Virus record (IMG/VR): IMGVR_UViG_3300036861_000477
Direction: 5' to 3' (one strand)
Source of the DNA: a virus
Length of the DNA: 64,000 nt
Part shown: one piece after another, positions 12,532 to 59,696 of the stretch
Numbering within the stretch: position 1 is the stretch's first letter
How the letters are laid out: every line of letters begins with the position of its first letter
Program-made: the position numbers and the translations under genes
Notes under the pieces: generated by a model
Told to the model about the DNA's origin: nothing
The model's input: only the letters and a program-made list of their open reading frames with translations
Database searches by the model: none

Positions 12532-15500
12532 GGGACTACCTCCAGTCGAACCAGTGTTGTGTAGTGCCCGCCCGTAGGCGGCAGCACTTCCTTAATGCGA
12601 TACTTAAGTCCCGCACCGAGAATGAGCTCCTGCTCAGTCTTATGCGAACTCACGGGATATGCCCACGCGGCGGGTGTTCCGGCCGGTAAGTCGATCTCAT
12701 AGGTGACAGAGCCACCAAACTTGCCACTCTTTGAGATTGATGTGCTCATGAATCCCGGGTCGGTCATGAGCTGTCCCGTGCGCTTCTGCAGCTCGGCGGC
12801 ATTCGCGTTGTTGTTACCGTAAAGATTAAACGGTGACCAGTCCGATCCGCGGAACACCTTCACGTTCTGCGGAATGGGTCGCATGCCCTCGGTGATGTTC
12901 TTCGCGTGCGTGGTCGCGCTGGGCGTGCACGAGCATTTTCCACGAAGGCAGCAGTTAATGGAACTGTACGTCGAACCGGTGTACGCTTGAATGCTACTCT
13001 TGGACTTAGCGGACCAAAGACCGTGCTGCTGATTCATCACCGCGTGCATGGCGTTGGCCTTGGTGAGACTCAGCTCAGGGAAGTTACCTGGCGTGGTCAA
13101 GCCCGTGTTGATCCCCGTGGACTTGAGGATCGACGGTGTGGCCGTGTTCGAGTTGGTACCACCGACGTTCAGTAGTGAACTCGCACTGAGACCCGTTCCA
13201 GCGGTCAGCGCACTGAACTCGTCCTTGCCCTTCTTCGTGCCCAGGTACTTCTTGATCTTATCCGTGAACGGCGTTGGCGACGTCTTCGTGCTCGTCGTGC
13301 CGTCCATTACCTCGAGGATCTGCCCGAGCGAGTACTGCGGGTGCGTGGATTGAACGGTGACGAGTTGGTCGAGCATCTTACTTGAGTCGGTCCACCACTT
13401 CACGTCACCGTTTGCGAACTGCGTCTTGATTTTTACCTTGTCGTTAACGCTCACAAGCGTGAGTGTCGGCACCGACGGAGCGGTTGGTGCGGTCACCTTG
13501 GGCGTGGCCGGCTTAGGTGTGACTACCTCACCGAGCGACCACGGACCCTTCGCACCCTGCAGTTCCTTGTACGCTTGACCCTTCGTCCACGTTTGAATGT
13601 CGCCCCAGGTGCCGTTGCCCAGCGGATCAACTTGCTGCACGATCTTGTTGTTCTTGTACACGATCCGCTGGATGCCGTTATCGTTGGTAGCGATAACCTC
13701 ACCCTCGGAGTACTTCCCATAGATGATCGCGTTGGTGAGCTTGTCGACCTTCTTAAGAGGTTTCGTCGAGACGGACGGTGTGCTTATCCCGGGCGAAAGT
13801 GTAGGCACACTCGATGTACTTGGCGTGTTCGGCACGCCAAATGTCGATGCAACATTCAAGTCATTGGACTCGTTCGCGACCTCCAGGATGTCACTCAAGT
13901 TGGATGAAACCCAGTTATACGCCGCTAGGTCAGTGTTCCATTGACCGTTGTCGTACTTTTGAAGCATTACACCCCACGAGGGAGCATTACCAATGACCGC
14001 GATCTGCATCGGCTTGCCGTCGTGTGGATCGGTCCATTCAGCGATGACCGTGCTACCCTTGATCTTTCCCGATGCGACATTGGTTTCGATCATCGCGCGG
14101 AACGTGTCTGCATCAGGCATCTTGAATGTGGGCTTACTTGATGATTTAGATGCGCTAGGTGTGCGGGGCGAGTTGGGCGCACTCGGCGACATCCACGCCG
14201 TAGGTGTGACGTCCTTGATCTCCTTGATCCACTGATATTTCTTAAAGTCCAGTGTATCAATTAGACCCAGATCACCGACGAACTGTTCTTCTTCCCACTT
14301 ATTCGTCTTGTGGTTGTACTTCTGCTCAGATAAACCAACCTTACCCGTCTTAGGGTCATCGATGGCAACGAGTCGATAAGAGACCGTGCCGGTGGTGCCA
14401 CTACCGATGACCTCGTTGTTCTTGTACTCGCCCGCAAGTAGCTTGGCACCAATAAGTTGACCACCGGCACTTGGAACAGTTGGAGTTCCACTCGGCACAT
14501 TGGTGTCATCCACCACACCTGGGGCAGGCGCGAACGAGTCGTACTTACCCATGTCAGTGGTGCCTAGAAAACCGTTCTTTGTGAACGATGATGAACCCGG
14601 AGTCCACGTGCCGTCCGGCGCCTTGTACTCCTCCTTAACACCCCACTTACCGCCCGGCGATTGGACCGCTTTGAGTCGTACACTGGTTCCGTTGTAGTCC
14701 GATCCGTGCGCGATGATCTGTCCCGGTGTGTAGTGCCCCTGCTCTAGCGCGTCCCAGATGGAAGCACCACTAACGGCACCTCCGCCACCCTTCTTAATGA
14801 ACTTACCGTGTGCACCACGCGGGTGATCCAGTGGATCGAAGTCTGCCGCGGTAAGTACATCGGACTCACCAGTCGACTCACCATAGCGTCCGGTCAGCGA
14901 GTGATCCGTCACCTCACCGGCAAACGCGACTCGCACACGGTCGAAGCTGATCGGCCCTAAGCGATCTTGAACAGATGCGGGAATCATCTGGTCATCGGTG
15001 TACGCAAGAGTAATGTGCGGAACCCAGGGTGTGTGATTCTCAGGAATCTTGTCCGCGAACGCGTCCTCCACCTGCAGGTGGAGTGCCTGCTTTAACGCGA
15101 CGAGCTTCGAGTCACCACCCCTAACACCCAACACCACGGCGGTGTCCATGTCGGGATCGTGCGGGTTGAAGACGTTCACCGAAAACGTCTCCGTGGCGAT
15201 CGGCGCGTACGTACCCGCGAGGTCGGCGACGATCTGCTGAACTTGCGCCTGCTCCTCAGGGCTCCAGTTGGCTGCCTCACCGAGGTAGAGCACAGTGGTG
15301 TGAAGCTGGTCGGCGTCCTCAAACCCGGCCACCTCGAGGCAGCGTGCGTCGGCCTCAGTCATGCGGAAGGCGATCATCGCGCCCGTGTGAACCTCGGCGG
15401 CAGCGGTCAGCACCTTGTCCTCCGATGGAACATTAAGATCGTAGGCGAGGGAGCAGCGGCACTGGATGATTTCACTCGCGGGTGCGTCCGGATCGCCCGG

Positions 15501-16259
15501 TCGGTCGAGGTACGACACGACGGTGTCGGGACACTCGGAACCCAGCCCACCCAGTGTGAACTTCCCGTTGAGGTCCACGGTCTGTCCACCAGCGTCACGG
15601 TGTGTGCAGCGCGTCCGACTGTCATTCGTATCGAGCCACTCCTTTGTGCCAACCAGTCCAGCGAGGCGAACCTGGTTGATGCCACCCGCGGAAGCGGCGC
15701 CGAGGACCTCCGTGCGGGCGATCACATTAGCTCGCTTTGACGAGACACCCGCGGCATCGGCTACACGCATTGCGAGCTTGGGAATCGACTCACCGAGCTG
15801 AGTCCCCTCAAGCAGTGACGCGCGAGCGGCCTCCCAGAAGATGTCACCGATCCCGACCAGTCGATTAACCGCGGACGCGAGGTAGTCCTGCGCGAAGATG
15901 TCCGAGACGGGTGGAATGATGAGACTCGGGAACGCCTCAGACATGCCCTGCCACAAGGTGCTCGCCGCGGCGAGGTACGACTCGGACAGCACCGGCATGA
16001 GCTCGGCGGAGACGATTCCGGCCCACATGCTGGTGACCGCACCTACGTCCCCAAACGCCACGGGCGCCGGTGGAGGTGGCAAGACACCAACCGCGACGGG
16101 AGCCGGTGCCGGTAGAGGTGCGGCGGCTGCTGTGAGCGTCTCGGTGAGTGACATAGCCGCTCGCTGCGCCATGGTGCCGAGCCACGTGTCGACGAGCTTC
16201 GCGAACCCGTCCTCCGTCTCACGAAGCTCATCGGGTCGCCAGCCCACGATCCGAGCCAC
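12528..16259 (-). CDS. MuF (gpF) head morphogenesis protein fused to 2H phosphoesterase and C-terminal ADP-ribosyltransferase
   Basis: MuF motifs RANVIARTE, KEW..TND.RTR.TH and CRC; paired 2H motifs HTTV and HITL; ART R-S-E triad VFRG, MSTS, EQE. Confidence 0.85.
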   Translation of the reverse strand: MARIVGWRPDELRETEDGFAKLVDTWLGTMAQRAAMSLTETLTAAAAPLPAPAPVAVGVLPPPPAPVAFGDVGAVTSMWAGIVSAELMPVLSESYLAAASTLWQGMSEAFPSLIIPPVSDIFAQDYLASAVNRLVGIGDIFWEAARASLLEGTQLGESIPKLAMRVADAAGVSSKRANVIARTEVLGAASAGGINQVRLAGLVGTKEWLDTNDSRTRCTHRDAGGQTVDLNGKFTLGGLGSECPDTVVSYLDRPGDPDAPASEIIQCRCSLAYDLNVPSEDKVLTAAAEVHTGAMIAFRMTEADARCLEVAGFEDADQLHTTVLYLGEAANWSPEEQAQVQQIVADLAGTYAPIATETFSVNVFNPHDPDMDTAVVLGVRGGDSKLVALKQALHLQVEDAFADKIPENHTPWVPHITLAYTDDQMIPASVQDRLGPISFDRVRVAFAGEVTDHSLTGRYGESTGESDVLTAADFDPLDHPRGAHGKFIKKGGGGAVSGASIWDALEQGHYTPGQIIAHGSDYNGTSVRLKAVQSPGGKWGVKEEYKAPDGTWTPGSSSFTKNGFLGTTDMGKYDSFAPAPGVVDDTNVPSGTPTVPSAGGQLIGAKLLAGEYKNNEVIGSGTTGTVSYRLVAIDDPKTGKVGLSEQKYNHKTNKWEEEQFVGDLGLIDTLDFKKYQWIKEIKDVTPTAWMSPSAPNSPRTPSASKSSSKPTFKMPDADTFRAMIETNVASGKIKGSTVIAEWTDPHDGKPMQIAVIGNAPSWGVMLQKYDNGQWNTDLAAYNWVSSNLSDILEVANESNDLNVASTFGVPNTPSTSSVPTLSPGISTPSVSTKPLKKVDKLTNAIIYGKYSEGEVIATNDNGIQRIVYKNNKIVQQVDPLGNGTWGDIQTWTKGQAYKELQGAKGPWSLGEVVTPKPATPKVTAPTAPSVPTLTLVSVNDKVKIKTQFANGDVKWWTDSSKMLDQLVTVQSTHPQYSLGQILEVMDGTTSTKTSPTPFTDKIKKYLGTKKGKDEFSALTAGTGLSASSLLNVGGTNSNTATPSILKSTGINTGLTTPGNFPELSLTKANAMHAVMNQQHGLWSAKSKSSIQAYTGSTYSSINCCLRGKCSCTPSATTHAKNITEGMRPIPQNVKVFRGSDWSPFNLYGNNNANAAELQKRTGQLMTDPGFMSTSISKSGKFGGSVTYEIDLPAGTPAAWAYPVSSHKTEQELILGAGLKYRIKEVLPPTGGHYTTLVRLEVVP

Positions 16260-24311: not shown

Positions 24312-24688
24312 CGCTTCCTCCGGCTACCCGCCCAAAGGGCGATCAGAGCGAAGAACGCAAGGGCAAGTAGCGGACCCGCCCAGCCACTGTCGTGATGTCC
24401 GAGTCGCGGGCCGTCATCACTCGGCGTCGGGCTGGGCGTGCTCGTCGTGCTGCTGGATCGGTACACCGTCGATCATCCCCTCGTTGTCTTTGTGGATGGC
24501 ATCGTGCACGTGCTGGAGGAACCCGGCGGGCGGACCACCCGAGTCACCCGGAGGGGCCGTCGTCTCCCAGTGGCCACAGATGCAACTGTACGTGGCTTCC
24601 GGGATCGGCACTCCGTCGATCGTCGGCGTGATCGTCTCGTCCTTACGCCACACGTGCGCGGCGGGATTCGCCACCACTATCGGTTCGA

Positions 24689-24952
24689 TCACTTCGTCTC
24701 CTCCCACCACTTCCGCGCGGCGAAGGCCACGAGGCAGATCGTTCCCACGACGACCGACGTGTGCGCGAGCCCAAGTGCCGGTAGCCACGTCCAGCCGGCT
24801 CGATGCAAGATGCCGAGCGTCCACATCACGGCTACGACGTACAGTGCGTACGTGGCCACGTCGACGAGAAAGCCAATGCATCCCGTCGCAATGTCCTCGA
24901 TCTGATCCTTACGAATCTTCACGTCGTTCCCTTCTCGTGTCTTACCTGTCAT
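24689..24952 (-). CDS. Small membrane protein
   Basis: Two hydrophobic segments; promoter-like TGG-TATATT upstream. Confidence 0.45.
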   Translation of the reverse strand: MTGKTREGNDVKIRKDQIEDIATGCIGFLVDVATYALYVVAVMWTLGILHRAGWTWLPALGLAHTSVVVGTICLVAFAARKWWEETK

Positions 24953-25207
24953 CTTGAATATACCACAGGACCACGTGATTAGCGTGGCCCTGCGATATTC
25001 CCCTCCGTGAACCCACCCCTGACCTCACGGAAGTTGAGACCCGCTCACCACAGCGGATGATTGCACCCGTGCCCGTACGAAATGCGATCAGAGGTGAGCG
25101 GGCGTAAGCGAGGAGCAGGCACGCGCGGTGTCGACGTAACCTTGGCCTCTTTCCACGGCGCCTTGTGTCGATCCGTCAAACCGTGGCGACTGCTTTAACT
25201 CCTCTAG

Positions 25208-25280
25208 AGGGACAGGATGGATTCGAACCATCTTGTAGTGCCTATGCAGTGATAAAAATCTCCGCACACTCACCCGCCCC
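25208..25280 (-). ncRNA. tRNA-like RNA lacking a D-arm
   Basis: Acceptor GGGGCGG/CTGTCCC and T-arm GATGG-TTCGAAT-CCATC; the middle is one long hairpin; 73 nt. Confidence 0.55.
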
Positions 25281-25502
25281 AGGCCCGGAAGGTCCTCCGC
25301 CACCAATCCCCCACGTCAACAGCCGCACCAGGATTGCCTGGACATCTACGACAAGACGCGTTATGTCACCGAGAGCTACTCGGCACACCGGTTCCAACGA
25401 TGACGGACCACATGCATATGGTCCCTCCCTAACAAAGACGGCCGATCTCTCTAAACCATCGGTCTGTTGCGCGGAATGTTAGCCGCTCTTCATCTTCGTT
25501 TG

Positions 25503-25590
25503 TGCAGCTGGGTGGAATCGAACCACCGACACACGTACGACAGGGAGGCCTATTCCCGTACGCTGCTCTGCCTTGCTGAGCTACAGCCAC
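25503..25590 (-). ncRNA. tRNA-like RNA with extended anticodon arm and G3-U70/A73
   Basis: Acceptor GTGGCTG/CAGCTGC; D-arm GCTC..GAGC; T-arm GGTGG-TTCGATT-CCACC; the anticodon arm encloses 21 nt instead of 7. Confidence 0.7.
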
Positions 25591-25891
25591 TAGCCTGGAG
25601 CTGGACGCCTGATGGAGTCAGGTCGTTAACCCAGGAATTATCCTACGGCACTCCACAGCCGTAGGTCCAGCGATCACGTTTGGTGGAGCGAAGTCACGTT
25701 TATTCTTCACCCCTAGTGTGGCATTGCGACTTACAGTAGTAGCCACCTCTAACCCGTCTCTCCGGGCCGTCACGGCCTATGCCTTCCGTCCTCGGCGACC
25801 TATGTTTCCGACACCTAGTCGTTGCCTCAGCGAACAGTGCTCGGTGCAACACTGGCGGCTTCGCGCGCCCTCGGTGCTCTGTTTCCGGTCG

Positions 25892-25966
25892 TCGCCGATC
25901 GTGGACTCGAACCACGCTCCCTCTAGGCCCAATGCCTAGCGCTCAATCCCTTGAGCCATCTCAGCG
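25892..25966 (-). tRNA. Degenerate tRNA, nominal anticodon TTG (Gln)
   Basis: D-arm and T-arm (CGTGG-TTCGAGT-CCACG) are present; loop CATTGGG lacks U33; the acceptor stem is imperfect. Confidence 0.5.
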
Positions 25967-26056
25967 GCCCGGTCACCAGGGTTGCTTGGGTAAGTGGTTT
26001 GTCCCACCCGAGACGCTCCTGGCGACCTGCTAGTGACTACTCTACCAGGACTGGGC

Positions 26057-26668
26057 TCACCGTTGTTCATCCAGTGTTGCCGAATCCACCACGCGTGATT
26101 GCGGACCGCGCTGTCGTACCCAGTTGACGCAGTCCGGCCGCTTAACGTGAAGCGTTATGCCCTTGCTACCTGGCTCATCGCAGTAGCCAAGATCGTCCTG
26201 TGGTACCGACTCCGTCGGTATCACCGGTAGTGGCATCTGGTGAAGAGTGTTCACAGCATCGGCACACTTCGCACAGAGATTTGGTCCGCCGCAGCGTGCC
26301 TTCGCCGGTTGAGGTTCCGCGTATTGCGCGTGGCTACAGCATCTATACCCGTGCGGGGTGTAGCCGTGATAGACGTTTGCGGAGGTGAGCGAGGGACTTG
26401 TCCCGAAGGTGCTAGTAGGCTTAGCCCAACCCTCCGCAGCGACCATCGCCGCTTGGTCCTCTCGCCATAGTACCTCGCAACGAACTGCGGCATCCTTCGC
26501 GAGGACGAGCTGTCGCAAGCAGAACGAGAGCTCCGGCGAGTCGGGCAGCTGGTTGACGAGTTCCTGTGCAAGGTCGGCGAACTGCCGGCTGATCACCTGC
26601 AGGTGTGGCGGCAGGTGCTGCCAGACGAACAGCCGCATGAGGTGCTCGGTGTTAGAATGTCGTGTCAC
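26057..26668 (-). CDS. Hypothetical protein (HLPPHLQ...AKDAAVR phage family plus Cys-rich extension)
   Basis: Recognisable common phage motif; ARCGGPNLCAKC extension. Confidence 0.6.
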   Translation of the reverse strand: MTRHSNTEHLMRLFVWQHLPPHLQVISRQFADLAQELVNQLPDSPELSFCLRQLVLAKDAAVRCEVLWREDQAAMVAAEGWAKPTSTFGTSPSLTSANVYHGYTPHGYRCCSHAQYAEPQPAKARCGGPNLCAKCADAVNTLHQMPLPVIPTESVPQDDLGYCDEPGSKGITLHVKRPDCVNWVRQRGPQSRVVDSATLDEQR

Positions 26669-26847
26669 GTGGTGCCTACACCTTCATCCAGCGCGTGCCG
26701 GTGATCCCGGCCGCGAGGTACTGCTGTAGCGGTGCGCCGATGTACCACCTCTGACCACACGAGCACGTCGCCCGTGAACCGGCACCCAGGCCGGGATTCC
26801 GCACCTCGAGGTCACGCAGCTCCCGCCGGCAGTCGTGGTGCTTGACG

Positions 26848-27192
26848 TTACGATCCAGCGTTGCCGTCGAGTCGTTCTCCCATCACGAAGACACCGTGCT
26901 CATCGTCAAGTGAGCAGACGTACCGGCCGATCTCGTAGCTGTGTCCGTCGGGGTGATGAAGCGATGCTTCCTTCGCGACGAGGCAGTCCAGCAGGTTCGG
27001 CCGACACGACAGTGGATGCTGGATCGTCCAGCCGTCGGCCTGCACGTCGATGATGTGGCGAGGGTCGCCAATGAGTAACTGATCGAGACTTTTGATGATA
27101 TCGGCCCGAGACTCAGCGTCCAGGTCATCCCACCACCAGTCGAAACCCTTCCGGTCCGCGAGCAACCGAATCACATCACGTCCTATAACCAT
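26848..27192 (-). CDS. Hypothetical protein
   Basis: RKGFDWWWDD and GWTIQHP motifs; GAG-rich RBS. Confidence 0.55.
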   Translation of the reverse strand: MVIGRDVIRLLADRKGFDWWWDDLDAESRADIIKSLDQLLIGDPRHIIDVQADGWTIQHPLSCRPNLLDCLVAKEASLHHPDGHSYEIGRYVCSLDDEHGVFVMGERLDGNAGS

Positions 27193-27259
27193 CTCTTGTT
27201 TTTCCCTCTCATCTCGGTGCCCGGACCTGCAGGTTTTCTCCTGTATATAACTGTCGGAC

Positions 27260-27952
27260 TCAGGCCAGTTCGCCGTCGATGTTCGAACCTGGTTCCAGCT
27301 GCCCCTGAGCTCTTTCCAGGGAGACTACCTGCCGCGCGATGCTAGAAACCAAGGCTAGCTGCTGATCCGCCGTCAGGGAGAGACTCAGCTCGTCCACCGT
27401 ACTCGCGATACCCGCTGTGGCCGCCTCGAACATCAGCCGTCCCTGCAGTTCCACGCGCTGAAGTAGCCGCTCGGCCACACCCGCGTCGATCGCCATCTTA
27501 CTGACCTTGGCCAGTCTATCACCACGAGCGTCCCGCATCTCGACCCAGCAGTGCAGGTCACCCCCGGGCGCGATGTCCTCGTCCGTTTGCGCACTCGCGA
27601 GCTTAGCGTTCAACCAGCGCACCTGACCCGCGAGGTCCTGCACTTCCTCAAGTAGCGCGTCCCACGGCGAGACCTGCCTCGCCTGCGCGTATGCGTGAGC
27701 CATGAGCCACGCCCCCTTCGCTCGTCCGTGTCTTTTCGCTCCGCCGTGCCCCACGCACTCGCCGGCACCCTCGTGTGATGTACCCTGTCCAGCGGGCTGG
27801 AAGCACGCTGTTCCGGCGAGCACACCCACCTTAATTGGGACACCACACGTCTCTCGAAGACGCTCACCGTCGCGTTCCCACTCGTCCATGGCCGCATCAA
27901 GTGCACGCACTTGCCAGTCAGCCATCGCATCAATGATCTCTCGAATGTCCAC
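27260..27952 (-). CDS. Putative terminase small subunit
   Basis: N-terminal C...C...C..HGG motif followed by helical P.DALLEEV...AG.V.WL, typical of actinophage terS-like proteins. Confidence 0.55.
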   Translation of the reverse strand: MDIREIIDAMADWQVRALDAAMDEWERDGERLRETCGVPIKVGVLAGTACFQPAGQGTSHEGAGECVGHGGAKRHGRAKGAWLMAHAYAQARQVSPWDALLEEVQDLAGQVRWLNAKLASAQTDEDIAPGGDLHCWVEMRDARGDRLAKVSKMAIDAGVAERLLQRVELQGRLMFEAATAGIASTVDELSLSLTADQQLALVSSIARQVVSLERAQGQLEPGSNIDGELA

Positions 27953-28329: not shown

Positions 28330-28626
28330 AAGTAGTGCTCTGGACACTTGGACGGTTTAAAGACAATTCTCATTTTTCTAGCTCGCGCGCGACATGCGCG
28401 CGCGCGTAGCGCGCGTATAAACATAGAATACACTTTGAAGTGTCCAAGTGTCCAAAGTTAGACTCTATAACTCTCTGACCTCGATAAACACAAGATCAAT
28501 AAGTGTACACATTGTGCTCAGCACCGTCCAACAACCGTCCAGCGATGTGTACAAGATCCAAAATTGGCCCACATATAGTCTCCATGTTGGATCTTGTACA
28601 CATCGAATGGATGGTTTCTGGACGGT
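28330..28626. other. Putative replication origin
   Basis: AT-richer non-coding stretch after the helicase stop, with two inverted-repeat pairs and a (CG)n run. Confidence 0.5.
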
Positions 28627-30126
28627 CTAAACGATCTTCATCATTAGTGGGACACCTTGCGGAAGCGTCCAGCCCACCCAGCGTGCGCCGTTACTACGCG
28701 TCTTTTCCCACCCGATTCCTTCCAGCGCCTGCGAGAATCCCTTGCTGCCAAGCGGATCTTTACGATCCTCAGACTCGGCTTGACCTTTGATCCAGTACCT
28801 GTAGATGTCATATAGATCGGTTGTTCGTGCACACCCTGATGCAGGTATCGTCTTAGATATCTCAGCAAGGTACTCCGCATTTAGTGCCCACTCGATGAAC
28901 TCAGCCAGGTGTCCCATACCTTGGCGAGCTTGGTCCGTCGCGATACGGTACTTCTCCGGCATGTCCGAGAGGTCACGGGCCAATGGCAAACTCGCACCAA
29001 AGATGACACGAGCCAAGAGTGCTTGCCGCATCTTAACGTCCGCCAAGAACCGCGCCCGAATCGCTGGGTCTTCCTTCTCGGGTGGGAGTGTCTGATCCAT
29101 GTGAATGGACAAGATTCGCCGTCGTGTTGCCACATCAATTCCGGAGATGCGTGGAAACTCATTCGCCACGATCATTGCCACGAACCGTGGAATGTGTTCG
29201 ATGATTCCCGCGTAGAGATCACGATAGGGAAGTGAGTCCGAGCCACCCGTGAGGCGCTTAACCTGGTCTGCGTGAAGTGCCCACGACTTAGAACCTTCGG
29301 TCGCGTAAGCGATTCGCTTGAACATCGCGCGAACGAGGTCAGGCCGTGGCTTGTCATCCAGGTTGCTGCGGAACACACCTGGGCTAATTGCGCACGCGTA
29401 TGAACCAAAGATCTGCTGAAGTGCGGCGAAGAACTGTGACTTACCACTCGTCGTGCCACCAAAGAACACCGGCAAGATGCGCAAGTCGTTACCCACATAG
29501 AGTGAGTGACCTAGTAGCTTAAACACATATGCTTGACACTCAGGATCTGGAATGAATGTCTCGAGGAACAACTCCAACTCCACCGAGTACCCGGGTTCCA
29601 CGGCCTCGGGAATAAACTCCACACCGGCGCAGAGTGAGTTCATGTCGTTAGGCTGCGCTGAACGTAAGCTGAATGTGCGCAAGTCCACGGTGCCGTTTGG
29701 TACGACGAAGTCCGAGACCGACTCATCAAAGTTGTGCAGTTCCAGCTGGATGCGAGGATCAGACTTCGCGACGCTTAGCATCGCACGCCGCTTATCTACC
29801 GCCTCAAGCTTTGTGATCGCCTGTAGTAGTGCGTCGCGGTTTTCACCCGTGGTCTCGAGCGCGAGGTCTTTCCGACGCTGGATGACACTCTGTGTGAGCG
29901 CGAACGCGGCGAGACCTTCACGCGTGTCAGGCTGCCAGTGAAAGCCGTTCCAGATAGCCCAGCGCTTTTCATCGGTGATGTACCGAACCGTGTCCTCAAA
30001 GAGATGAACGAACAGTCCCGCGTTCGTCGTATCGGTGATCGGGTTAAGGTCGATCCCCGCATTAAGATCGATCCAGTGGTGAGCTGAGACCGTTGTGGCT
30101 TCACCCTGTTGCTGCTCACTCACCAA
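28627..30126 (-). CDS. D5/P4-family SF3 helicase (primase partner)
   Basis: D5-N motifs (WAIWNG.HW, VVPNGTVDL); Walker A variant GGTTSGKS; KRLTGGSD..YRDLY. Confidence 0.85.
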   Translation of the reverse strand: MVSEQQQGEATTVSAHHWIDLNAGIDLNPITDTTNAGLFVHLFEDTVRYITDEKRWAIWNGFHWQPDTREGLAAFALTQSVIQRRKDLALETTGENRDALLQAITKLEAVDKRRAMLSVAKSDPRIQLELHNFDESVSDFVVPNGTVDLRTFSLRSAQPNDMNSLCAGVEFIPEAVEPGYSVELELFLETFIPDPECQAYVFKLLGHSLYVGNDLRILPVFFGGTTSGKSQFFAALQQIFGSYACAISPGVFRSNLDDKPRPDLVRAMFKRIAYATEGSKSWALHADQVKRLTGGSDSLPYRDLYAGIIEHIPRFVAMIVANEFPRISGIDVATRRRILSIHMDQTLPPEKEDPAIRARFLADVKMRQALLARVIFGASLPLARDLSDMPEKYRIATDQARQGMGHLAEFIEWALNAEYLAEISKTIPASGCARTTDLYDIYRYWIKGQAESEDRKDPLGSKGFSQALEGIGWEKTRSNGARWVGWTLPQGVPLMMKIV

Positions 30127-32611: not shown

Positions 32612-32687
32612 CGCGGGATAGAGGAGTTCGGTCGTCCTCGTCTGGCTCATAACCAGAAGATCGCTGGTTCAAATCCGGCTCCCGCGT
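32612..32687 (+). tRNA. tRNA with CAT anticodon (elongator Met or Ile2)
   Basis: Full cloverleaf: CGCGGGA/TCCCGCG, TCTGG-CTCATAA-CCAGA, GCTGG-TTCAAAT-CCGGC. Paired C1-G72 and no triple GC stem, so not the initiator; CCA not encoded. Confidence 0.9.
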
Positions 32688-32914
32688 CTGCGCACGATGA
32701 CCAGTCACCGTGCACACGGAACCGAGCACGTCACCGCTGGCGCTAGGATGTACAATGTGACGAACATTGGGCGACTCGCAGCCCGTAAACTGGACGAACG
32801 TCGAGAGGGTTTCCCCGTTGGCCCAAACCAACCGGGTGAGGGACCGGTGCTCGGCCGGGTGCCGGTCCCTGACTTAACCTCATAAGACAAAGACACGACA
32901 AGGACGGAGAGATC

Positions 32915-34102: not shown

Positions 34103-34250
34103 GGGCCGAATAGCTCAAAGGTAGAGAGCGGAGCACTTAGGCTCCGGCGCCACTGGAGTGGCGGGACGGAACGGTGAGACTCGCACAACCTGCGTCGTAG
34201 GTTGAGTTGACCCGGAAAGTCGATGGCGGGTTCGAGTCCCGTTCGGTCCA
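34103..34250 (+). ncRNA. 148-nt tRNA-like RNA with multi-hairpin insert and G3-U70/A73
   Basis: Acceptor GGGCCGA/TCGGTCC-A; D-stem GCTC/GAGC; T-arm GCGGG-TTCGAGT-CCCGT; about 80 extra nt folded into hairpins. Confidence 0.7.
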
Positions 34251-34295
34251 CGGTTGACGAAAGTCACCAGACAACTTCACGACAAGGAGAAGTGT

Positions 34296-38908: not shown

Positions 38909-40700
38909 CGTCAAGCTCCACCTCATCGAGACGATGGACGACGTCGCGAAGTTCAACGACTGGCTGAACTCACGTGACCGCGACCAACTCGGCTTCGACA
39001 CAGAGACGACGGGTCTCGATCTCGAGAAGGACCACGTTCGCCTCGTGCAGATCGGCGATGAGGAGGACGGCTGGGCGATGTCCTGGGAACGCTGGTCCGG
39101 TGTGTTTGAGGACACTGTGAAAAAGTTCACGGGAAACTGGGTCGCGCACAACGCACCGTACGATCAGCACATGACCGCGAAAGCGGGCATCAAGGTCGAG
39201 CGATCACAGATCCTGGATGCCCGACCCATGGCGCACATCGTCGATCCCACGGGTTCCATGGCCCTGAAACCTCTGTCAGGTCGGTACGTCGATAAGCGCG
39301 CCGGCAACGCGCAGCAGGACCTCGACGACGGTGTCGCCAACTGGGGTTGGGCGAACATCCCGATCAACTTCGAGCCGTACTGGTCGTACGGCGCGCTGGA
39401 TCCCGTCCTGACGATGCAACTCGGACGAGAGCTCTGGACTCGCGTCGTGGATCACGGCGCGACGAAGGCGTTCGATGTGGAGAACGCCGTCCAGTGGATC
39501 ACGCACGACATGGGTCGCTACGGCACGAACATCGACACGCGGTACGCGCTAACGCACTACGAGAAGTTCAACGAGTACTGTGATCTAGCCGAGATGTGGT
39601 GTAAGAAGGAGTACAACGTCTCGCCCGGTTCGAACGCGGCGGTCATCAAGGTGCTCCACGAGGCGGGCGTCGAGTTCACGAAGCGCACCAAGGGTGGTGC
39701 CATCTCGTTGGACGCCGACGTGCTCGAGGGGATCGACCACCCACTCGCGCAGACCGTGCTCAAGCGCCGTAAGCTGCAAAAGCTCGCGTCTACATACCTC
39801 AAGCACTACATCACCGAGGTCGACGGTGACAGCCTCATCCATCCGTCGTTCAACACACTGGGTGCTCGCACGTCACGCATGTCGATGTCGAACCCGAACA
39901 TGCAGAACCTGCCACGTGTGAGCGAGTACAACCACGCGACCACCGTGATCCGCAACTGCGTGCACGCACGACCCGAGCACACGCTCATCTTCTGTGACTT
40001 CTCACAGATCGAGATGCGCATGCTCGCGTGGCTCTGCAAGGACCCGGGTCTCGTCGCCGCGTTCCTCTCCGGTGATGACTTCTTCGTGAGTCTGGCCCAG
40101 CAGGTGTACCACGACCTGTCGATCGATAAGAAGCATCCACTTCGCCAGCGAGTTAAGAACGTCGGCTACGCGAAGATCTACGGTGCGGGTGACGAGAAGA
40201 TCGCGGTCACCGCCGGTGTGCCGTACGCCGGGGGTCGTGCATCACGCATCGCGTTCGACCAGGCGTTCCCACTCGTATCCGAGTACGTGAACATCAACTT
40301 CCATGAGGCGATGCTCAACAAGTCCGTGTTCGGTTACCCATTCGTGAACTGCCCACTCACGGGTCGCCGGCATCCCGCGGACTCGGGTAAGGAGTACACA
40401 CTCGTGAACTTCCAGATCCAAGGTGCGGCGGCCGTGCTCTTTAAGATGAAGATGCTCGAGCTCGATCAAGCCGGACTTGGCCCGTGGATGATGCTCGCGG
40501 TACACGACGAGATTATTCTTGATGTTCCGAACGAATACGTGCCCGATGCGGTGCACAAGCTTCAGCAGGTAATGAATGACGATGTGATCATGGCCCCCGT
40601 GCCGATCACCGCCGAGGTGTCCTTCGGTCAGCGCTGGGGTGAGAAGCACGACTGGAACGAAGCTCTGTGGAGGGAGCTCACCTATGCCCAGGCCACTTAG
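38895..40700 (+). CDS. polA: Family A DNA polymerase with 3'-5' exonuclease
   Basis: FDTETTGLD, AHNA.YD, CDFSQIEMR, KNVGYAKIYG and VHDEI; start taken at TTG 38895. Confidence 0.93.
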   Translation: MSLDNVKLHLIETMDDVAKFNDWLNSRDRDQLGFDTETTGLDLEKDHVRLVQIGDEEDGWAMSWERWSGVFEDTVKKFTGNWVAHNAPYDQHMTAKAGIKVERSQILDARPMAHIVDPTGSMALKPLSGRYVDKRAGNAQQDLDDGVANWGWANIPINFEPYWSYGALDPVLTMQLGRELWTRVVDHGATKAFDVENAVQWITHDMGRYGTNIDTRYALTHYEKFNEYCDLAEMWCKKEYNVSPGSNAAVIKVLHEAGVEFTKRTKGGAISLDADVLEGIDHPLAQTVLKRRKLQKLASTYLKHYITEVDGDSLIHPSFNTLGARTSRMSMSNPNMQNLPRVSEYNHATTVIRNCVHARPEHTLIFCDFSQIEMRMLAWLCKDPGLVAAFLSGDDFFVSLAQQVYHDLSIDKKHPLRQRVKNVGYAKIYGAGDEKIAVTAGVPYAGGRASRIAFDQAFPLVSEYVNINFHEAMLNKSVFGYPFVNCPLTGRRHPADSGKEYTLVNFQIQGAAAVLFKMKMLELDQAGLGPWMMLAVHDEIILDVPNEYVPDAVHKLQQVMNDDVIMAPVPITAEVSFGQRWGEKHDWNEALWRELTYAQAT

Positions 40701-41408: not shown

Positions 41409-43277
41409 ATGCCAGTCGCTGAATTGAATGACGACGGAACACGAATCAACGTCCAGACCGTGTACACCGAGAAGGAGCTCATCAAGCGAGTTCCGGGTGC
41501 ACTCTACGACGGCACGCAGAAGATCTGGCACGTGCCTAAGACGTGGCCGGCGTGTCTCCAGCTCCGAGGTGTCTTCGGTACATCACTCACCATCGGTGAT
41601 GAGCTACGTAAGTGGGCAACACTGGAGCGCACCATGCGGGTGCAAAACATCCTAGAACTTCGCGATGTGCTTACGCCCGCGAACGTGATGCCGTGCTACT
41701 CACCTGATCTTTATCCATTCCAAGCCGCCGGTGTGGACTTCTTCAACGCCACGGGTCGCACGCTTCTTGGCGATGAGATGGGCACGGGCAAGACTATTCA
41801 AGCGCTTGAGACCCTACGACACGCGCACGAGCACGGCCCAGATGTTCTTCCTGCACTCGTGATCTGTCCCAACACTACGAAGTACAATTGGGAAGATGAG
41901 ACCGCACGCTGGTTCCCGGCCGTGCGCACCTACGTGATCTCGGGCGGTCTCGTCCAGCGGCGCAAGATCCTCAAGGCCGCGAGAGCCGATCCACTGGCGA
42001 TCGTCATCATCAACATTGAGGGTGTTCGTGGTCACTCGCGACTCGCGCCTTACGGCTCCGTTCGCCTTAAGCGCTGCGTCTCGTGCTCGGGTGGCGACGT
42101 CACCGCGGTCAGCGAGTCTCGTTGTGAAGTGCATCCCAAGGAGCTTAACGGGTTCGGGTTCAAGACGGTGATCTTTGATGAGGCGCACCGGATGAAGGAG
42201 CCGAAGGCACTCCAAACTCGCGCGGCTTGGGCGGTGGGGCATGACCCGTCGGTCACTGAACGGTGGGCACTCACCGGCACACCGATCGCCAACGACCCAT
42301 CGGACCTCTGGTCGCTTCTTCACTTCATCGACCCCATCGGGTTCCCGCGTCGATCGGCCTTCATCGACCGCTACTGCTTGCAATCGTGGAACAGCTACGG
42401 TGGCCTCTCCGTCATCGGTGTGAAGCCTGAGACCCGTGATGAGTTCCACGCGATCCTCAACACGTACTTCCGTCGTGTCACCAAGGCGATGGTCCTCGAC
42501 CAGCTGCCGAAGAAGGTTCGCACGACGATCCTCGTGGACATGGAGCCCAAGCAGGCGAAGGCGTACCAAGAGATGGGGGACAGCCTCGTCACGCGACTCG
42601 AGGACGGGCAGCTTCTCATCGCGCGATCGAACCTCGTCGCGCAGATTCGACTGCTCCAGCTCGCGGCGTCGTACTGCACCCTAGAGAAGCCCGACCCCGA
42701 AGATTCCAAGACGTGGATTCTCACACCGACCGATCCGTCACCGAAGATCGATGCACTCGTCGAGATCCTTGAGGATGCAGCGAAGCCGGTCGTCGTCGCA
42801 GCTGCCCAGCGCAAGCTTATCGAGCTCGCGTCAAAGCGACTTACCAAGCTCAAGATCCCGCACGCTCTCATCACGGGTAAGGTCGACGAGTGGGATCGTA
42901 AGAAGGCACTTGAGGACCTCAAGGACGGTCGCATCAAGGCACTCCTCTTCACGATGAAGGCGGGTGGTACGGGCCTCAACATGACCGCCGCCGACACGAT
43001 CGTCTTCCTACAGCGCGACTGGTCGATGATCGAGAACATCCAGTCCGAGGACCGGGTGCACCGCATCGGTTCCGAGATCCACGAGTCCATCAACGTGATC
43101 GACATCGTCGCACGTGGAACCGTCGAGGAAGACGTCATCCAGCGGTACGTGGAGAAGCGCGTGCGACTGGACGAGATCACTCGTGACCGTGAACGCCTTC
43201 GCGCACTGGGCCATACCACGACCGAGCTCGACGAGCTCGAGGCGTCACTCACTTCGGGATTCTTGGGGGAGCTGTGA
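41409..43277 (+). CDS. SNF2-family helicase
   Basis: GDEMGTGKT, DEAH, LTGTP, GGTGLNMT and QSEDRVHRIG. Confidence 0.92.
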   Translation: MPVAELNDDGTRINVQTVYTEKELIKRVPGALYDGTQKIWHVPKTWPACLQLRGVFGTSLTIGDELRKWATLERTMRVQNILELRDVLTPANVMPCYSPDLYPFQAAGVDFFNATGRTLLGDEMGTGKTIQALETLRHAHEHGPDVLPALVICPNTTKYNWEDETARWFPAVRTYVISGGLVQRRKILKAARADPLAIVIINIEGVRGHSRLAPYGSVRLKRCVSCSGGDVTAVSESRCEVHPKELNGFGFKTVIFDEAHRMKEPKALQTRAAWAVGHDPSVTERWALTGTPIANDPSDLWSLLHFIDPIGFPRRSAFIDRYCLQSWNSYGGLSVIGVKPETRDEFHAILNTYFRRVTKAMVLDQLPKKVRTTILVDMEPKQAKAYQEMGDSLVTRLEDGQLLIARSNLVAQIRLLQLAASYCTLEKPDPEDSKTWILTPTDPSPKIDALVEILEDAAKPVVVAAAQRKLIELASKRLTKLKIPHALITGKVDEWDRKKALEDLKDGRIKALLFTMKAGGTGLNMTAADTIVFLQRDWSMIENIQSEDRVHRIGSEIHESINVIDIVARGTVEEDVIQRYVEKRVRLDEITRDRERLRALGHTTTELDELEASLTSGFLGEL

Positions 43278-50511: not shown

Positions 50512-51381
50512 GTGATGGCCAGCCAGGCGTACTACGACTGGAAAGCGGCCGGTGAGCCATACACTCGCGCGCGCCCCACGCTGGAGTTCCTTCAGATGTT
50601 GCGCGGCCACGGCTACACCGTGTACGACTACCCGGACATCGATCACCTGACGGCCGAGCCGCCGGAGGATCACACCCCGTTCTCGGCCACCGGCTGGCCG
50701 ATCGCGAGCAAGCGATGGGTGGGTCACGCCGTCGACGTGATGCCGCCGGCGGTTTCGTCTGCCCTGCCGACGTTGCCCAACCTGGCACGGCAGATCATCA
50801 AGGACAAGGACGCCAAGGTCCACGGCACCGAGTGGATCAAGTACATGAACTGGACCGACGAAGACGGCATCTGCCGCAAGGAACGATGGTGGCTGGACGG
50901 CTCGCGGACCACCACCAGCAGCACCGATAAAGGCCACGTTCACATCAGCGGACGCAGCGACATGGACACCTCCGACGTGGTGTCCGCGTCCGGCTGGGAC
51001 CCCGTAGCACGCTTGAGAGGAACCGACATGAGTCTGACCCCGGCCGAGCACAATACCCAGATTGCGATCGACGCACGGGTGCGCACCCTGATGTTCGATG
51101 CTGACTTCGCCGATTTCCAGCTGCTCAACAGCGATGGGACTCCCGGCGAGACCCGGCACGAGGCGAACAAGTCCAAGGCGGCCAGAGCGGCTATCGCCGC
51201 AGACGTGGCGGAGCTGAAGGCCCGACCGCCGGTCACGTTCACCGCCGAGCAGATCGCGGCGCTCGCGAACGCCATCGCGGCCGAGCTGATCGCCAGTGAT
51301 GCCAACGCGCTGACCATGGCCGATCATGACGGCATCGTGGCCGACGTGAAGAGCGCTCTGCGCGAAGGCTCCGCGACGTGA
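50512..51381 (+). CDS. Endolysin (M15-like Zn peptidase)
   Basis: H...GHAVD...GHVHIS metal-binding pattern; flanked by membrane proteins. Confidence 0.7.
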   Translation: MMASQAYYDWKAAGEPYTRARPTLEFLQMLRGHGYTVYDYPDIDHLTAEPPEDHTPFSATGWPIASKRWVGHAVDVMPPAVSSALPTLPNLARQIIKDKDAKVHGTEWIKYMNWTDEDGICRKERWWLDGSRTTTSSTDKGHVHISGRSDMDTSDVVSASGWDPVARLRGTDMSLTPAEHNTQIAIDARVRTLMFDADFADFQLLNSDGTPGETRHEANKSKAARAAIAADVAELKARPPVTFTAEQIAALANAIAAELIASDANALTMADHDGIVADVKSALREGSAT

Positions 51382-55285: not shown

Positions 55286-55512
55286 TGCATTTCCTCCGCG
55301 GCTTCTTCCATGTACCACTTCCACCAGTTACGTGCGTACACGTAACCGTAGGCGAACGCGGAGATGATAAAACCCCACTGACGCGTGTACAGACCGTAGG
55401 CGACCCAGAGAATCTGTGCGAGGAAGTTGATCATCCAGCCGATCTTCAAGCGTGATCCGGCGAGTAAGAGACCCGTGACGCCAATGCCCGCGAGTACGAA
55501 CGACCAGATCAT
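55282..55512 (-). CDS. Small PnuC-like membrane protein
   Basis: Two to three TM segments; GW....Q.LW..Y......G pattern. Confidence 0.55.
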   Translation of the reverse strand: MIWSFVLAGIGVTGLLLAGSRLKIGWMINFLAQILWVAYGLYTRQWGFIISAFAYGYVYARNWWKWYMEEAAEEMQ

Positions 55513-55516
55513 GTCA

Positions 55517-56092
55517 TCACCACTTCGTGGGAAGACCACTGGTGTTGCCCTGGTGATGGCACCAGAACCACGTCCGCTCGACGAGGTGTGAAATCTTCGC
55601 GCCGGCCTCAATGCAACCCAGTGTGAAGAACCGGTCCTCACCCGAGTTGATGTTGTGCCCGCGGTTCAGCGCTTGGAAGCCGACCTGCTTCGCGAGCTCC
55701 GTTCGGACGAGTGTGGTGATCGTCGTCTCGATCGGGTTCGCTGGATCGAACGGTTCGGTGAAGTGTGTGGAAGGGAACGGGTCGCCACCGCCGAGCATCT
55801 CGAACCACGAGTACACGAAGTCCGCCTCGGTCTCTAACGCATGCGCCAGCAGACGCTCGAGATGCTGAGTCTTGAACATGTCGTCGTCATCAAGGAACGC
55901 GACCCAGGGCGTGGTAACCGCGTCCAGAGCTCTCTGTCGCGTGGCCGCGGCACCTTCCCGATGGGTATCAACGGCGATGGAGATCGCGGCCGCGGGAAGA
56001 GTCTGACGGGCGACACTGCCGATGGCTCGTTCCAGCAGGTGCGGACGAACGGGGATGGACGGGATGACCACCGTGATGTCATTCTCTGTCAT
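55517..56092 (-). CDS. GT2 glycosyltransferase
   Basis: ITVVIP, GAAATRQ and VAFLDDDD. Confidence 0.85.
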   Translation of the reverse strand: MTENDITVVIPSIPVRPHLLERAIGSVARQTLPAAAISIAVDTHREGAAATRQRALDAVTTPWVAFLDDDDMFKTQHLERLLAHALETEADFVYSWFEMLGGGDPFPSTHFTEPFDPANPIETTITTLVRTELAKQVGFQALNRGHNINSGEDRFFTLGCIEAGAKISHLVERTWFWCHHQGNTSGLPTKW

Positions 56093-56104
56093 AGTGCTAC
56101 TCTA

Positions 56105-56749
56105 TCACCACGGAGGTTGACCCCACTTCTCAACGAAAGCTACACGGTCGCGCCCCGCCTGCTGGGCAAGTTCAGCGGTGGTCGTGCTGTTCGGGTAAAG
56201 ATGTTGAATCTTCAACCCTCCAACCAACACGGCACCCCCCTTCTGGCGTGCCTGGTACTCGATGTCATTGTCCCCGTACCACCAGACGAAGCGTTCGTCC
56301 GCCATGATACCGGCCTTGCCGCTAAGTGCGAACGCGAAACCACTCATCCGCAAGCCGTCACGCACGGGCCACGTGAGTGCGTAGTCCGCGTTGAGCCCGT
56401 ACACATCGGGAAATGCTGCCACGACGTTGTACTGCCCGATCGCGGTCGCAAGCCGCTGGACGAACTGTGGCGGCACGATCACATCATCATTCAGCACTGC
56501 GACGACGTAGTCACCTGAAAAGTTCTCGGACGCGGCCACGTAGCCCAGGCCCACGTTCCACCAGAACGAGATGTTCAAGCGATCCACGAAGCGGATGATG
56601 TGTACTCGATCCGTCTCGGCGAAGTCGAGTCGAGGTTCATAGCCCGTGTCCACGATGACGACGTTCACATCATCATTAAGAAGTCGTGCGACGAGAGCAA
56701 AGAGCTCGGTACGACGTTCTTTCGAGGGAATCACTGCCCAGAGTTTCAC
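56105..56749 (-). CDS. GT2 glycosyltransferase
   Basis: WAVIP, WN.G, VLNDD and WWYGDND. Confidence 0.8.
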   Translation of the reverse strand: MKLWAVIPSKERRTELFALVARLLNDDVNVVIVDTGYEPRLDFAETDRVHIIRFVDRLNISFWWNVGLGYVAASENFSGDYVVAVLNDDVIVPPQFVQRLATAIGQYNVVAAFPDVYGLNADYALTWPVRDGLRMSGFAFALSGKAGIMADERFVWWYGDNDIEYQARQKGGAVLVGGLKIQHLYPNSTTTAELAQQAGRDRVAFVEKWGQPPW

Positions 56750-58599: not shown

Positions 58600-59696
58600 G
58601 AGTAGGCCTTTCGCATGACGTGTCCCATCGCGGCACCTTCAGTAAGCGGAAGTGTCCACGCCAGCTCGAGCCAGTTCTCACCCTGCCAGACAATGACATC
58701 GTATGAATCATGGCGCGGATCCGGCACCGTTGCCAACTCAACACGCTCAAGCACCGTCTGGCGCAGGGCTAAATTCTTGGCGATCGCAGCAATCTGCGCC
58801 TGAGTGTTCACTTGACGTTCAATGACACTCGGAATTACAAACCCACGGTTCTCGATTGAGTGAGGTGCAGTGATTGGTACATCCGCGCGACCGACGGTGG
58901 GTGTTGCTGCCGTGTCCTCAGTGGCTGCACCGTTTGAGACGACGATGAATCGATTAGGTGCAGTGAGTAGATCATCCGTCTCAATGATGCTATCACGAAT
59001 GACGCGATTACCCACGTCGAGATCGAACGTCGGAACGGCGGTCGCCGGATCGAACGCACGGATGAAGTGCATGTGAGTATCATTACCAAACCATGGTGAA
59101 AACCAGTCGCCATCCAGTGCCATCTGTTCAATGATCTGGCCTCGTGTCGTTCCGGCGTTCCACGCACCGATGGTGTAATACTGTGTAGGCTCGATCTCTA
59201 ATGTGACAGCAATGTTCACAAGTAGCCGACGAATTGCCTTGTCACAATTAGCAAATGATGCCGGAGACCCGATGTTCACGGCGATCTGTGGTGAGAACGC
59301 GGTTTCAATCTGCTGATCCACCATGAACATCTCGTCGTACAGTGTCGCATTCGTGATGCGCCCATTCGAGTAAAAGAGACGTGCGCGGTCCGCGAACATG
59401 TAGCGACCCAGTGGGTACTGCACACCACCCAAGATCATATAGACGAGAATGCGTGACTGGATGACGTTGACGATGGCGGTGTCCGCAACACCCAGTGTGA
59501 GACCGGTGATCTGTCGCTTGATCGTTCGACTCGTGTCGTGTGACAGTGTTGGCACGGTGTCCCGAAGTGGGTGGATGTCGATCGGTGACTGCGCGCCGAT
59601 CTCGTTGATGAGCACGAAGCGGAATGTGGCCGCACGCTGTCCCACGTAGTCCGGCATATCCAGCGCTACGAGTGCCTCCGTGGTAAGCAGCGACAC
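58596..59696 (-). CDS. Minor tail (hub-like) protein
   Basis: YPLGRYMF, PNRF.V and P.PRH.SYD patterns; synteny. Confidence 0.7.
   Translation of the reverse strand: MSLLTTEALVALDMPDYVGQRAATFRFVLINEIGAQSPIDIHPLRDTVPTLSHDTSRTIKRQITGLTLGVADTAIVNVIQSRILVYMILGGVQYPLGRYMFADRARLFYSNGRITNATLYDEMFMVDQQIETAFSPQIAVNIGSPASFANCDKAIRRLLVNIAVTLEIEPTQYYTIGAWNAGTTRGQIIEQMALDGDWFSPWFGNDTHMHFIRAFDPATAVPTFDLDVGNRVIRDSIIETDDLLTAPNRFIVVSNGAATEDTAATPTVGRADVPITAPHSIENRGFVIPSVIERQVNTQAQIAAIAKNLALRQTVLERVELATVPDPRHDSYDVIVWQGENWLELAWTLPLTEGAAMGHVMRKAYS

Follow-up and report, generated by a model that had tools for sequence, protein, structure and literature searches.

The locus described here raises the question of whether a gene with a tRNA core and no usable anticodon is a decaying tRNA, the precursor of an ordinary one, or an RNA maintained for some purpose other than decoding. 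It lies on the minus strand (25503..25590) of a 64,000-nt stretch of viral DNA, which we call the window. The Rfam tRNA model (RF00005) matches the 88-nt gene end to end (model positions 1-71) with 41.7 bits against a gathering score of 29 (E 1.9e-5 over the 64-kb window) and puts a 20-nt insertion in the anticodon loop. The match confirms the coordinates and the strand assigned by a first-pass annotation. Our own covariance model, R1, gives the gene 87.1 bits, the sequence itself having been used in building that model. Default ARAGORN makes no call at the gene.

Read 5' to 3', the RNA is GUGGCUG-UA-GCUC-AGCAAGGCA-GAGC-A-[31-nt arm]-GUGUC-GGUGG-UUCGAUU-CCACC-CAGCUGC-A. The acceptor 5' strand GUGGCUG (RNA positions 1-7; 25584..25590, on the minus strand like every part of the gene given below) pairs at all seven positions with 25504-25510 (G1-C72, U2.G71, G3.U70, G4-C69, C5-G68, U6-A67 and G7-C66), and the stem holds a tandem wobble, U2.G71/G3.U70. 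The acceptor 3' strand CAGCUGC and the discriminator A73 (25503) together occupy 25503..25510. CCA is not encoded; the bases 3' of A73 are CAA, and CCA would therefore have to be added post-transcriptionally. The D arm, GCUC-AGCAAGGCA-GAGC (25565..25581), has a 4-bp stem and a loop with A14, G18 G19 and A21. The variable loop, read directly from the sequence, is GUGUC (25528..25532), and the T arm, GGUGG-UUCGAUU-CCACC (25511..25527), has five Watson-Crick pairs including G53-C61 and the T-loop UUCGAUU. The elbow and core bases U8 A9, A14, G18 G19, A21 and G53-C61 are all canonical, and a G15:C48 contact is possible. The normal acceptor, D and T arms seen in the first-pass annotation are thus borne out, with all stems paired and the tertiary-contact bases canonical, as are G3-U70 and A73 when read from the minus strand.

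With canonical elongator tRNAs the RNA shares the 7-bp acceptor stem, U8, a D arm with G18 G19, the 5-nt variable loop, UUCGAUU and A73. What it lacks is a readable triplet, U33 and a 5-bp anticodon stem capped by a 7-nt loop. In their place is an arm of 31 nt (25533..25563), compared with 17 nt in an ordinary tRNA. Everything that marks a tRNA is found except the anticodon arm, and we therefore call the product a tRNA-like RNA and not a tRNA.

The arm folds with a minimum free energy of -11.7 kcal/mol in ViennaRNA. The preferred structure consists of an outer helix GCGUACG/CGUACGU of 7 bp (pair probabilities 0.89-0.99), a 3-nt bulge GGA, an inner helix AUAGG/CCUGU of 5 bp (0.57-0.92) and the tetraloop CCUC. 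An alternative fold, with the inner helix GGGA/UCCC, the loop AUAGGCC and a bulge UGUC, is 1.7 kcal/mol worse and makes up about 5% of the ensemble. This minor fold is the one that had been described for the distal arm at first; the elongation itself and the loss of a decodable anticodon stand, since both folds give an arm of 10-12 bp without a canonical 7-nt anticodon loop. The minor-fold loop AUAGGCC lies 10 bp from the core and has C at the equivalent of position 37. Judged from tRNA geometry, a triplet at the tip of the arm would miss the decoding site, lying about two half-turns of helix too distant from the core. A closed hairpin of 10-12 bp should thus be unable to place a codon-reading triplet at the proper spacing from the 3' end, and the RNA would for that reason be no ribosomal adaptor. 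The arm by itself is modestly more stable than its shuffles (z -1.8; 12 of 200 shuffles are as good). Its stability is marginal, and the statistical weight therefore rests on the match of the whole RNA to the tRNA model. A repeat or antisense target of the insert was not found elsewhere in the window at 3 or fewer mismatches.

The window encodes tape-measure, portal, MuF-type head and large terminase proteins, a PrimPol, a D5-type primase-helicase, a family A DNA polymerase and an SNF2 helicase. Its portal is about 27% identical to the portals of Mycobacterium, Gordonia and Microbacterium phages. A nucleotide search of 24500-27500 against 50,697 phage records gave no match, and DNA of the window is present in soil metagenomes. 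The window therefore comes from a novel, uncultured, actinophage-like siphovirus of soil. Two soil-metagenome runs have contigs with the identical 88-nt sequence, and a third run, which holds a variant strain, has its 3' half. Since the sequence appears in more than one run, the gene is not an assembly artefact. No RNA run is listed among those that hold the gene. Contigs from the sequencing runs show no joints, an observation that has no bearing on expression or splicing.

The gene sits in an ORF-poor island of about 1.1 kb (about 24960-26056) without convincing ORFs. The island is inside a leftward gene block that runs from the PrimPol and primase genes to the terminase, and the gene is co-oriented with the genes around it. 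Two other tRNA-like units on the minus strand share the island. One, at 25891..25966, is called by ARAGORN as tRNA-Gln(UUG); R1 gives it 20 bits, its loop is CAUUGGG with A33, and it has no Rfam match at the gathering score or at E<=1. One small sequencing run, guessed to be RNA, covers only 25746-26051, which includes this tRNA-Gln-like gene. The other, at 25208..25280, was found by our own scan for acceptor and T arms and is possibly a third unit, with an acceptor, a long hairpin and a T arm and no D arm; it is weak (R1 14 bits, E 0.69). A scan of 24800-26400 for promoter and terminator consensus sequences gave nothing exceeding shuffled expectation. The neighbouring 203-aa protein had no relative in IMG/VR by a pattern method. 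Neither the surroundings of the gene nor the window proteins scanned, which represent part of the ORFs, yielded a partner protein; Ro60, RtcB and tRNA enzymes were not seen among these proteins.

Related phages offer a wider view of such genes. A search with the D5-type primase yielded three complete IMG/VR genomes of 60-63 kb (G001-G003) with 59-63% identity and synteny to the window, and a protein search with contig look-ups yielded eight further contigs (primase 45-61% identity). These relatives were scanned with Rfam, ARAGORN, our acceptor/T-arm scan and R1. Most of them have an ordinary tRNA-Met(CAU), with occasional tRNA-Glu or tRNA-Asp genes. They also carry many tRNA-like genes that combine a canonical core with a non-canonical anticodon arm, and the cluster of tRNAs and tRNA-likes lies immediately upstream of the terminase gene. 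MAFFT misaligned the D arms when all tRNA-likes were included, and a four-sequence alignment and the covariance model were used instead.

Six of the tRNA-likes, including the one under study, bear a D arm, and the region between positions 26 and 48 spans 16-67 nt in them, compared with 23 nt in a normal tRNA. In the 88-nt RNA the region has 37 nt, in a 94-nt RNA of G001 45 nt and in a 117-nt RNA of G003 67 nt. Three more relatives encode RNAs of 68 nt (L036; region of 19 nt, an arm of 3 bp with a 5-nt loop), 66 nt (L038; 16 nt) and 76 nt (L040; 26 nt, a perfect 9-bp helix with a GGCC tetraloop). All six share U8 A9, G18 G19 and the T-loop UUCRAnU, and their acceptor and T stems are paired throughout. 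We define the class here by a canonical acceptor/D/T core together with a closed hairpin at positions 27-43 that departs from the standard length. The 88-nt RNA has both, and the anticodon-less class is common to it and these five analogues.

Other forms occur as well. A 110-nt family with two perfect extra hairpins is found in G001 (39087-39196) and G002 (56044-56153), a 122-nt family in G002 and G003, and a 148-151-nt family in the window (34103-34250), G001 (38935-39085) and G003 (55356-55506). Units with an acceptor, T arm and hairpin and no D arm are found in L035 and at 25208-25280 of the window. The G001, G003 and L036 members of the D-arm-bearing class form a family of their own. Its acceptor, GGGGUGG/UCACCYC, varies only at one base of the 3' strand, in L036, and its T arm only at one base of the loop, in G003. 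The arm between acceptor and T arm is unalignable in this GGGGUGG family, where it measures between 13 and 62 nt. Since some analogues differ in their acceptor stems and have arms of very small size, a single function may not cover the whole set.

The heptaloops AUAGGCC in the window and AUCUUAU in G001 were considered as displaced anticodon loops. Both belong to minor conformers, the arms that would carry them differ in length, and the RNAs of G003, L036, L038 and L040 have no such loop.

Intron-containing pre-tRNAs of archaea and eukaryotes also have extra nucleotides in the anticodon arm that lengthen the helix, and the first-pass annotation had raised the prospect that the insert is spliced out to give an ordinary tRNA. 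Under this explanation the gene would encode a precursor from which 14-20 nt are removed to leave a normal decoding tRNA. ARAGORN in intron mode can indeed model the gene as tRNA-Asp(GUC) with a 16-nt intron, but the model is non-canonical, with the intron at 31/32, an A27.G43 mismatch and position 26 absent. In the G001 and G003 analogues the same mode yields unrelated anticodons, Asp(AUC) with C33 instead of U33 and Arg(UCG), and the inconsistency makes splicing unlikely. In the register of a normal 5-bp stem, no single contiguous removal from the 21 nt that separate its two strands leaves a 7-nt loop with U33. The bulge-helix-bulge of two 3-nt bulges flanking 4 bp, which archaeal and eukaryotic precursors have, is absent from both predicted folds, and there is no consistent junction. 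The short-armed analogues, with 16-19 nt, hold nothing that could be removed. A group I intron was rejected, as the insert is 14-20 nt and the catalytic core takes a few hundred nt; Rfam gave no intron match. The gene belongs to a bacterial phage, and we know of no splicing endonuclease in bacteria. No consistent splicing solution was found, and we regard a spliced precursor as highly improbable.

Whether the RNA is decaying can be judged from its own parts and from its relatives. A tRNA pseudogene would be a former Phe-like tRNA, altered in the anticodon loop by insertion or rearrangement but still undecayed, its G3.U70 being an incidental wobble. As a blastn query the 88-nt sequence gave only partial matches, to ordinary phage tRNA-Phe genes and attP sites. 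The best partial matches of both halves are phage tRNA-Phe genes, and judged from these the body of the RNA appears to resemble tRNA-Phe. Its variable loop GUGUC and T-loop UUCGAUU are, we presume, those of E. coli tRNA-Phe, and the two adjacent acceptor wobbles could be obtained by two transitions. Phage tRNA sets turn over quickly, a point in favor of a pseudogene, as is the exchange of G3.U70 for G3-C70 within the 110-nt family. In addition, no orthologue attests the conservation of this particular sequence. Pattern searches of IMG/VR and of prokaryote genomes found none with the same acceptor stem. IMG/VR returned nothing when queried with DNA patterns, exact or degenerate, of the insert and of the full RNA, a blank of little weight for the full RNA, whose pattern was over-strict in the D loop and the gap length. 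A copy of a host tRNA end, as at an attP site, was considered and rejected, for the 3' half, made up of T arm and acceptor, had no exact match in 185,579 prokaryote species, one genome each. The primase had no prophage relative in the genomes of those species.

Against a pseudogene stand the intact stems and tertiary-contact bases everywhere outside the arm, the fact that the inserted part is itself base-paired and not random, and the recurrence in five or more other phage genomes of a perfect core with a closed variable arm, accompanied by compensatory changes. These changes were assessed over 16 core pairs in a model-guided alignment of 11 sequences (8 tRNA-likes and 3 canonical tRNA-Met genes). 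In this alignment, which was fitted to a model that favours pairing, 97.7% of the cells pair, compared with 70.4% after shuffling and 44-52% with slid partners. Two-sided, compensatory changes occur at 12 of these 16 pairs, and on each of the five measures all 500 shuffles fall short. A hand-parsed table agrees, with 95 of 96 cells forming pairs and two-sided changes at 9 of the 16 pairs. Among the arms of the analogues are long, near-perfect helices, three of them with z from -2.5 to -3.7. Random decay is unlikely, because it would spare the core no more than the arm and would break up long near-perfect helices; nor would independent decay give a recurring pattern with compensatory changes. 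We consider a pseudogene unlikely. With their intact covarying cores and variable closed arms, the anticodon-less tRNA-likes of the relatives are read as maintained RNAs in which the constraint lies in the tRNA-shaped core and no anticodon is kept.

On present evidence, then, the proposal in the first-pass annotation of a selected RNA class rather than decay is upheld by the related phages. In the related phages, where it proposed to look for covarying extended stems, the covariation is in the core, and the arms are closed hairpins of variable length that cannot be aligned within the GGGGUGG family. For the 88-nt RNA itself, selection is argued from these analogues, its acceptor stem having turned up in no orthologue. 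The variant strain has 3 substitutions in the 128 nt immediately downstream and 0 in the 46 gene nt covered, a weak difference that is not significant.

The identity of bacterial tRNA-Ala lies outside the anticodon. Its determinants are A73, G2-C71, G3.U70 and G4-C69, all in the acceptor branch, and G20; alanyl-tRNA synthetase (AlaRS) ignores the anticodon, and G3.U70 put into tRNA-Phe makes it a substrate of AlaRS (PMC9976931). The 88-nt RNA has A73, G3.U70 and G4-C69; at the two other determinants it has U2.G71 in place of G2-C71 and C20 in place of G20. Because G3.U70, A73 and G4-C69 are present, charging by AlaRS at some level is predicted; it is plausible and may be inefficient. A class selected for alanine charging without decoding could act as a sink for AlaRS or EF-Tu, as a non-ribosomal alanine donor or in protection against anticodon nucleases. 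These determinants and the indifference of AlaRS to the anticodon (PMC9976931) speak for such a class. So does the 148-151-nt family, which has G3.U70 and A73 in all three genomes that carry it, despite other changes in the acceptor. The 110-nt family has G3.U70 in G001. In all, G3.U70 recurs in 3 of about 8 independent families, above the roughly 10% frequency of wobbles at other G positions, in a sample that is small and uncorrected for phylogeny.

The closest relatives of the 88-nt RNA in structure point the other way. In all five analogues the 3:70 pair is G3-C70 or C3-G70, with G73 in two; G3-C70 is also what G002 has in its copy of the 110-nt RNA. The incomplete determinant set of the 88-nt RNA itself also counts against a class built on alanine. 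Moreover, most of the tRNA-likes have G3, and a single C70-to-U transition makes G3.U70. It looks like a lineage-specific feature and not a defining trait of the anticodon-less tRNA-likes, and a class selected for alanine charging seems decidedly unlikely to us. Alanine identity as a selected trait is suggested by the sequences only for the 148-151-nt family, the link for the 88-nt RNA coming from a single sequence. The alanine identity proposed at first for both RNAs of the window thus survives as a determinant that is present in each and conserved in the family of the 34103 RNA; as a selected trait of the 88-nt RNA it is no more than a candidate, and it does not define the class.

Taken as a whole, the 88-nt locus probably encodes a selected, non-decoding tRNA mimic. 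Its expression, processing, charging and purpose we infer from its position and structure. Judging by position, the RNA would be transcribed within the leftward block from primase to terminase. Because the acceptor stem, D arm, T arm and elbow bases are all canonical, tRNA-like processing is expected: host RNase P and 3'-end trimming enzymes would excise the RNA, and the CCA-adding enzyme would complete its 3' end. The product would be a stable, L-shaped RNA of 88 nt, and the same cuts would divide the long leftward transcript. As a non-decoding RNA it would most likely act through the half made of acceptor and T arm and through the elbow, the parts that are read by processing enzymes, by anticodon-independent synthetases and by other enzymes directed at the acceptor end.

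Two purposes are compatible with such a mimic. The RNA may act in trans, as a decoy, sponge or carrier for a tRNA-binding factor of host or phage, possibly in alanylated form; we put this forward tentatively, at rather less than an even chance. It may instead act mainly in cis, as a processing or stability element, the tRNA shape being a site for RNase P and 3' processing at which the leftward transcript is cut ahead of the late genes while the arm drifts. We consider this second purpose somewhat unlikely. Such punctuation is favored by the ORF-poor island, in which the gene and two other tRNA-like units are co-oriented with the surrounding genes; by the position of the cluster just upstream of the terminase gene in the relatives; by the units without a D arm in L035 and at 25208-25280, since units of acceptor, T arm and hairpin are nearer to a minimal RNase P substrate; and by the unconstrained length and sequence of the arm. 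It leaves unexplained why the acceptor and T arm are near-identical in three phages whose proteins are only 50-63% identical, and why a full elbow and long near-perfect arm helices are found in place of drifting loops. A normal tRNA would also serve equally well. The near-identical top half of the GGGGUGG family and the full elbow favor recognition by a specific partner over punctuation. A more elaborate form of the trans-acting purpose, in which the clade encodes a set of aminoacylatable non-decoding mimics, each with its own acceptor identity and with the 88-nt and 148-nt RNAs being of the alanine type, appears improbable and is offered as speculation. If true, it would make these RNAs a new functional class of phage RNA, serving for instance as decoys that soak up host defence enzymes directed against the acceptor end or elbow of tRNA, or as carriers of amino acids outside the ribosome.

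Known tRNA mimics include tmRNA, Y RNAs and the 3' tRNA-like structures of viruses. The tRNA-like domain of tmRNA resembles the 88-nt RNA in its G3.U70/A73, its acceptor and T arm and its lack of an anticodon. It has, however, no true D arm or equivalent of the anticodon arm, and tmRNA includes pseudoknots and a tag reading frame, none of which is found in the 88-nt RNA. No tmRNA was detected at the locus by ARAGORN or Rfam, and the RNA is only 88 nt long. The small stable RNAs called species 1 and 2 in phage T4 and tRNA-Other in Bacillus cereus are encoded among tRNA genes, undergo tRNA-like processing and do not decode; their function is unknown or regulatory. To our knowledge none of them joins a complete D/T/acceptor core to a long closed hairpin, and we regard them as functional analogies, drawn by description and not by sequence or fold.

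Y RNAs of the YrlA type are found in actinobacteria and their phages, and in M. smegmatis RNase P cleaves YrlA, to which CCA is also added (Chen et al. 2014, PMC4201824). They mimic the D, T and acceptor arms, and the 88-nt RNA is likewise a probable substrate of RNase P and CCA addition. The topology of YrlA is permuted, however: its two ends lie in the stem that binds Ro60, which sits where a tRNA has its anticodon stem, and its acceptor is a closed loop. The 88-nt RNA is the opposite, with free acceptor ends and a closed arm. YrlA genes adjoin the Ro60 gene (rsr), whereas the window proteins scanned include no TROVE/Ro60 match. At the locus no Rfam family other than tRNA scored above its gathering score, although Rfam may hold no YrlA model.

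In the literature searched we found no account of phage tRNA-likes in which a closed hairpin takes over from the anticodon arm, and the architecture, which recurs in this clade, seems undescribed. If made and stable, such RNAs would represent a natural separation of the functions of the tRNA top half (processing, CCA addition, charging and elbow recognition) from decoding. They would also be candidates for new interactions between phage and host at tRNA-binding enzymes. In addition, anticodon-less genes can mislead counts of phage tRNAs, and the arguments about codon usage built on such counts, because default ARAGORN misses the 88-nt gene and mislabels related or neighboring loci. For example, it labels the 148-nt RNA as tRNA-Asp, with an arbitrary anticodon, and the units in L035 and L040 as "tRNA-???".

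A family of tRNA-like RNAs of 148-151 nt is present in the window (34103-34250, plus strand) and in two of the complete relative genomes, G001 (38935-39085, minus strand) and G003 (55356-55506, plus strand). G3.U70 and A73 are kept in all three genomes, alongside changes at other acceptor pairs. The stem of the hairpin at the anticodon position covaries (GGAGC/GCUCC versus CCGGC/GCCGG), and its 6-nt loop reads ACUUAG, ACCUAG or GUCUAG, so that each of the three loops contains UUA or CUA, the complements of stop codons. The ARAGORN prediction of a tRNA-Asp at 34164-34251 of the window is a mis-parse of this RNA.

Immediately upstream of its 151-nt member, G001 encodes a 110-nt tRNA-like RNA (39087-39196, minus strand) that has a counterpart in a third complete relative genome, G002 (56044-56153, minus strand). 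Between their D and T arms, members of this family carry two additional, near-perfect hairpins; A73 is present in both copies, and pair 3:70 is G3.U70 in G001 and G3-C70 in G002. A structured RNA of about 122 nt is also conserved between G002 (59463-59585, minus strand) and G003 (50955-51076, plus strand), with a closing stem of CGGUC/GACCG and a hairpin resembling a T arm (GAGGUUCGACUCCUC).

Two further units, at 25208-25280 of the window (minus strand) and 15455-15529 of the related contig L035 (plus strand), lack a D arm and combine an acceptor stem with a T arm (UUCGAAU or UUCGAGU) and a single long hairpin. The hairpin of the L035 unit includes a 20-nt perfect palindrome. The window unit is a weak candidate, scoring 14 bits with R1, our covariance model of these tRNA-like RNAs, and having two G.U pairs in its acceptor.

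The gene at 25891-25966 (minus strand), called tRNA-Gln(UUG) by ARAGORN, has A rather than U at position 33 and a mismatch at 7:66, and has no Rfam match even at E<=1. Read by eye, its arm could form a 6-bp stem closing a 5-nt loop. A variant strain (run X5) has five substitutions and two indels in the adjoining 145 nt and none within the gene itself. It may be a further non-decoding tRNA-like RNA.

The only fully canonical tRNA of the window is a tRNA-Met(CAU)-type gene (32612-32688, plus strand), and the majority of the related genomes that were examined have one as well. The copies in the window, G003 and L035 share a near-identical D arm; the acceptor and T stems of the gene show covariation. 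The 92-nt tRNA-Gln(CUG) called by ARAGORN at 41959-42050 (plus strand) falls within a SNF2-helicase ORF (41409-43277), receives no support from Rfam and is in all likelihood a false positive.

The primase gene carries at its 3' end a long, near-perfect inverted repeat (28523-28628, about 40 bp in each arm). The Rfam matches to miRNA precursors there are spurious products of the repeat, which might serve as a terminator or as a site acting at the DNA level.
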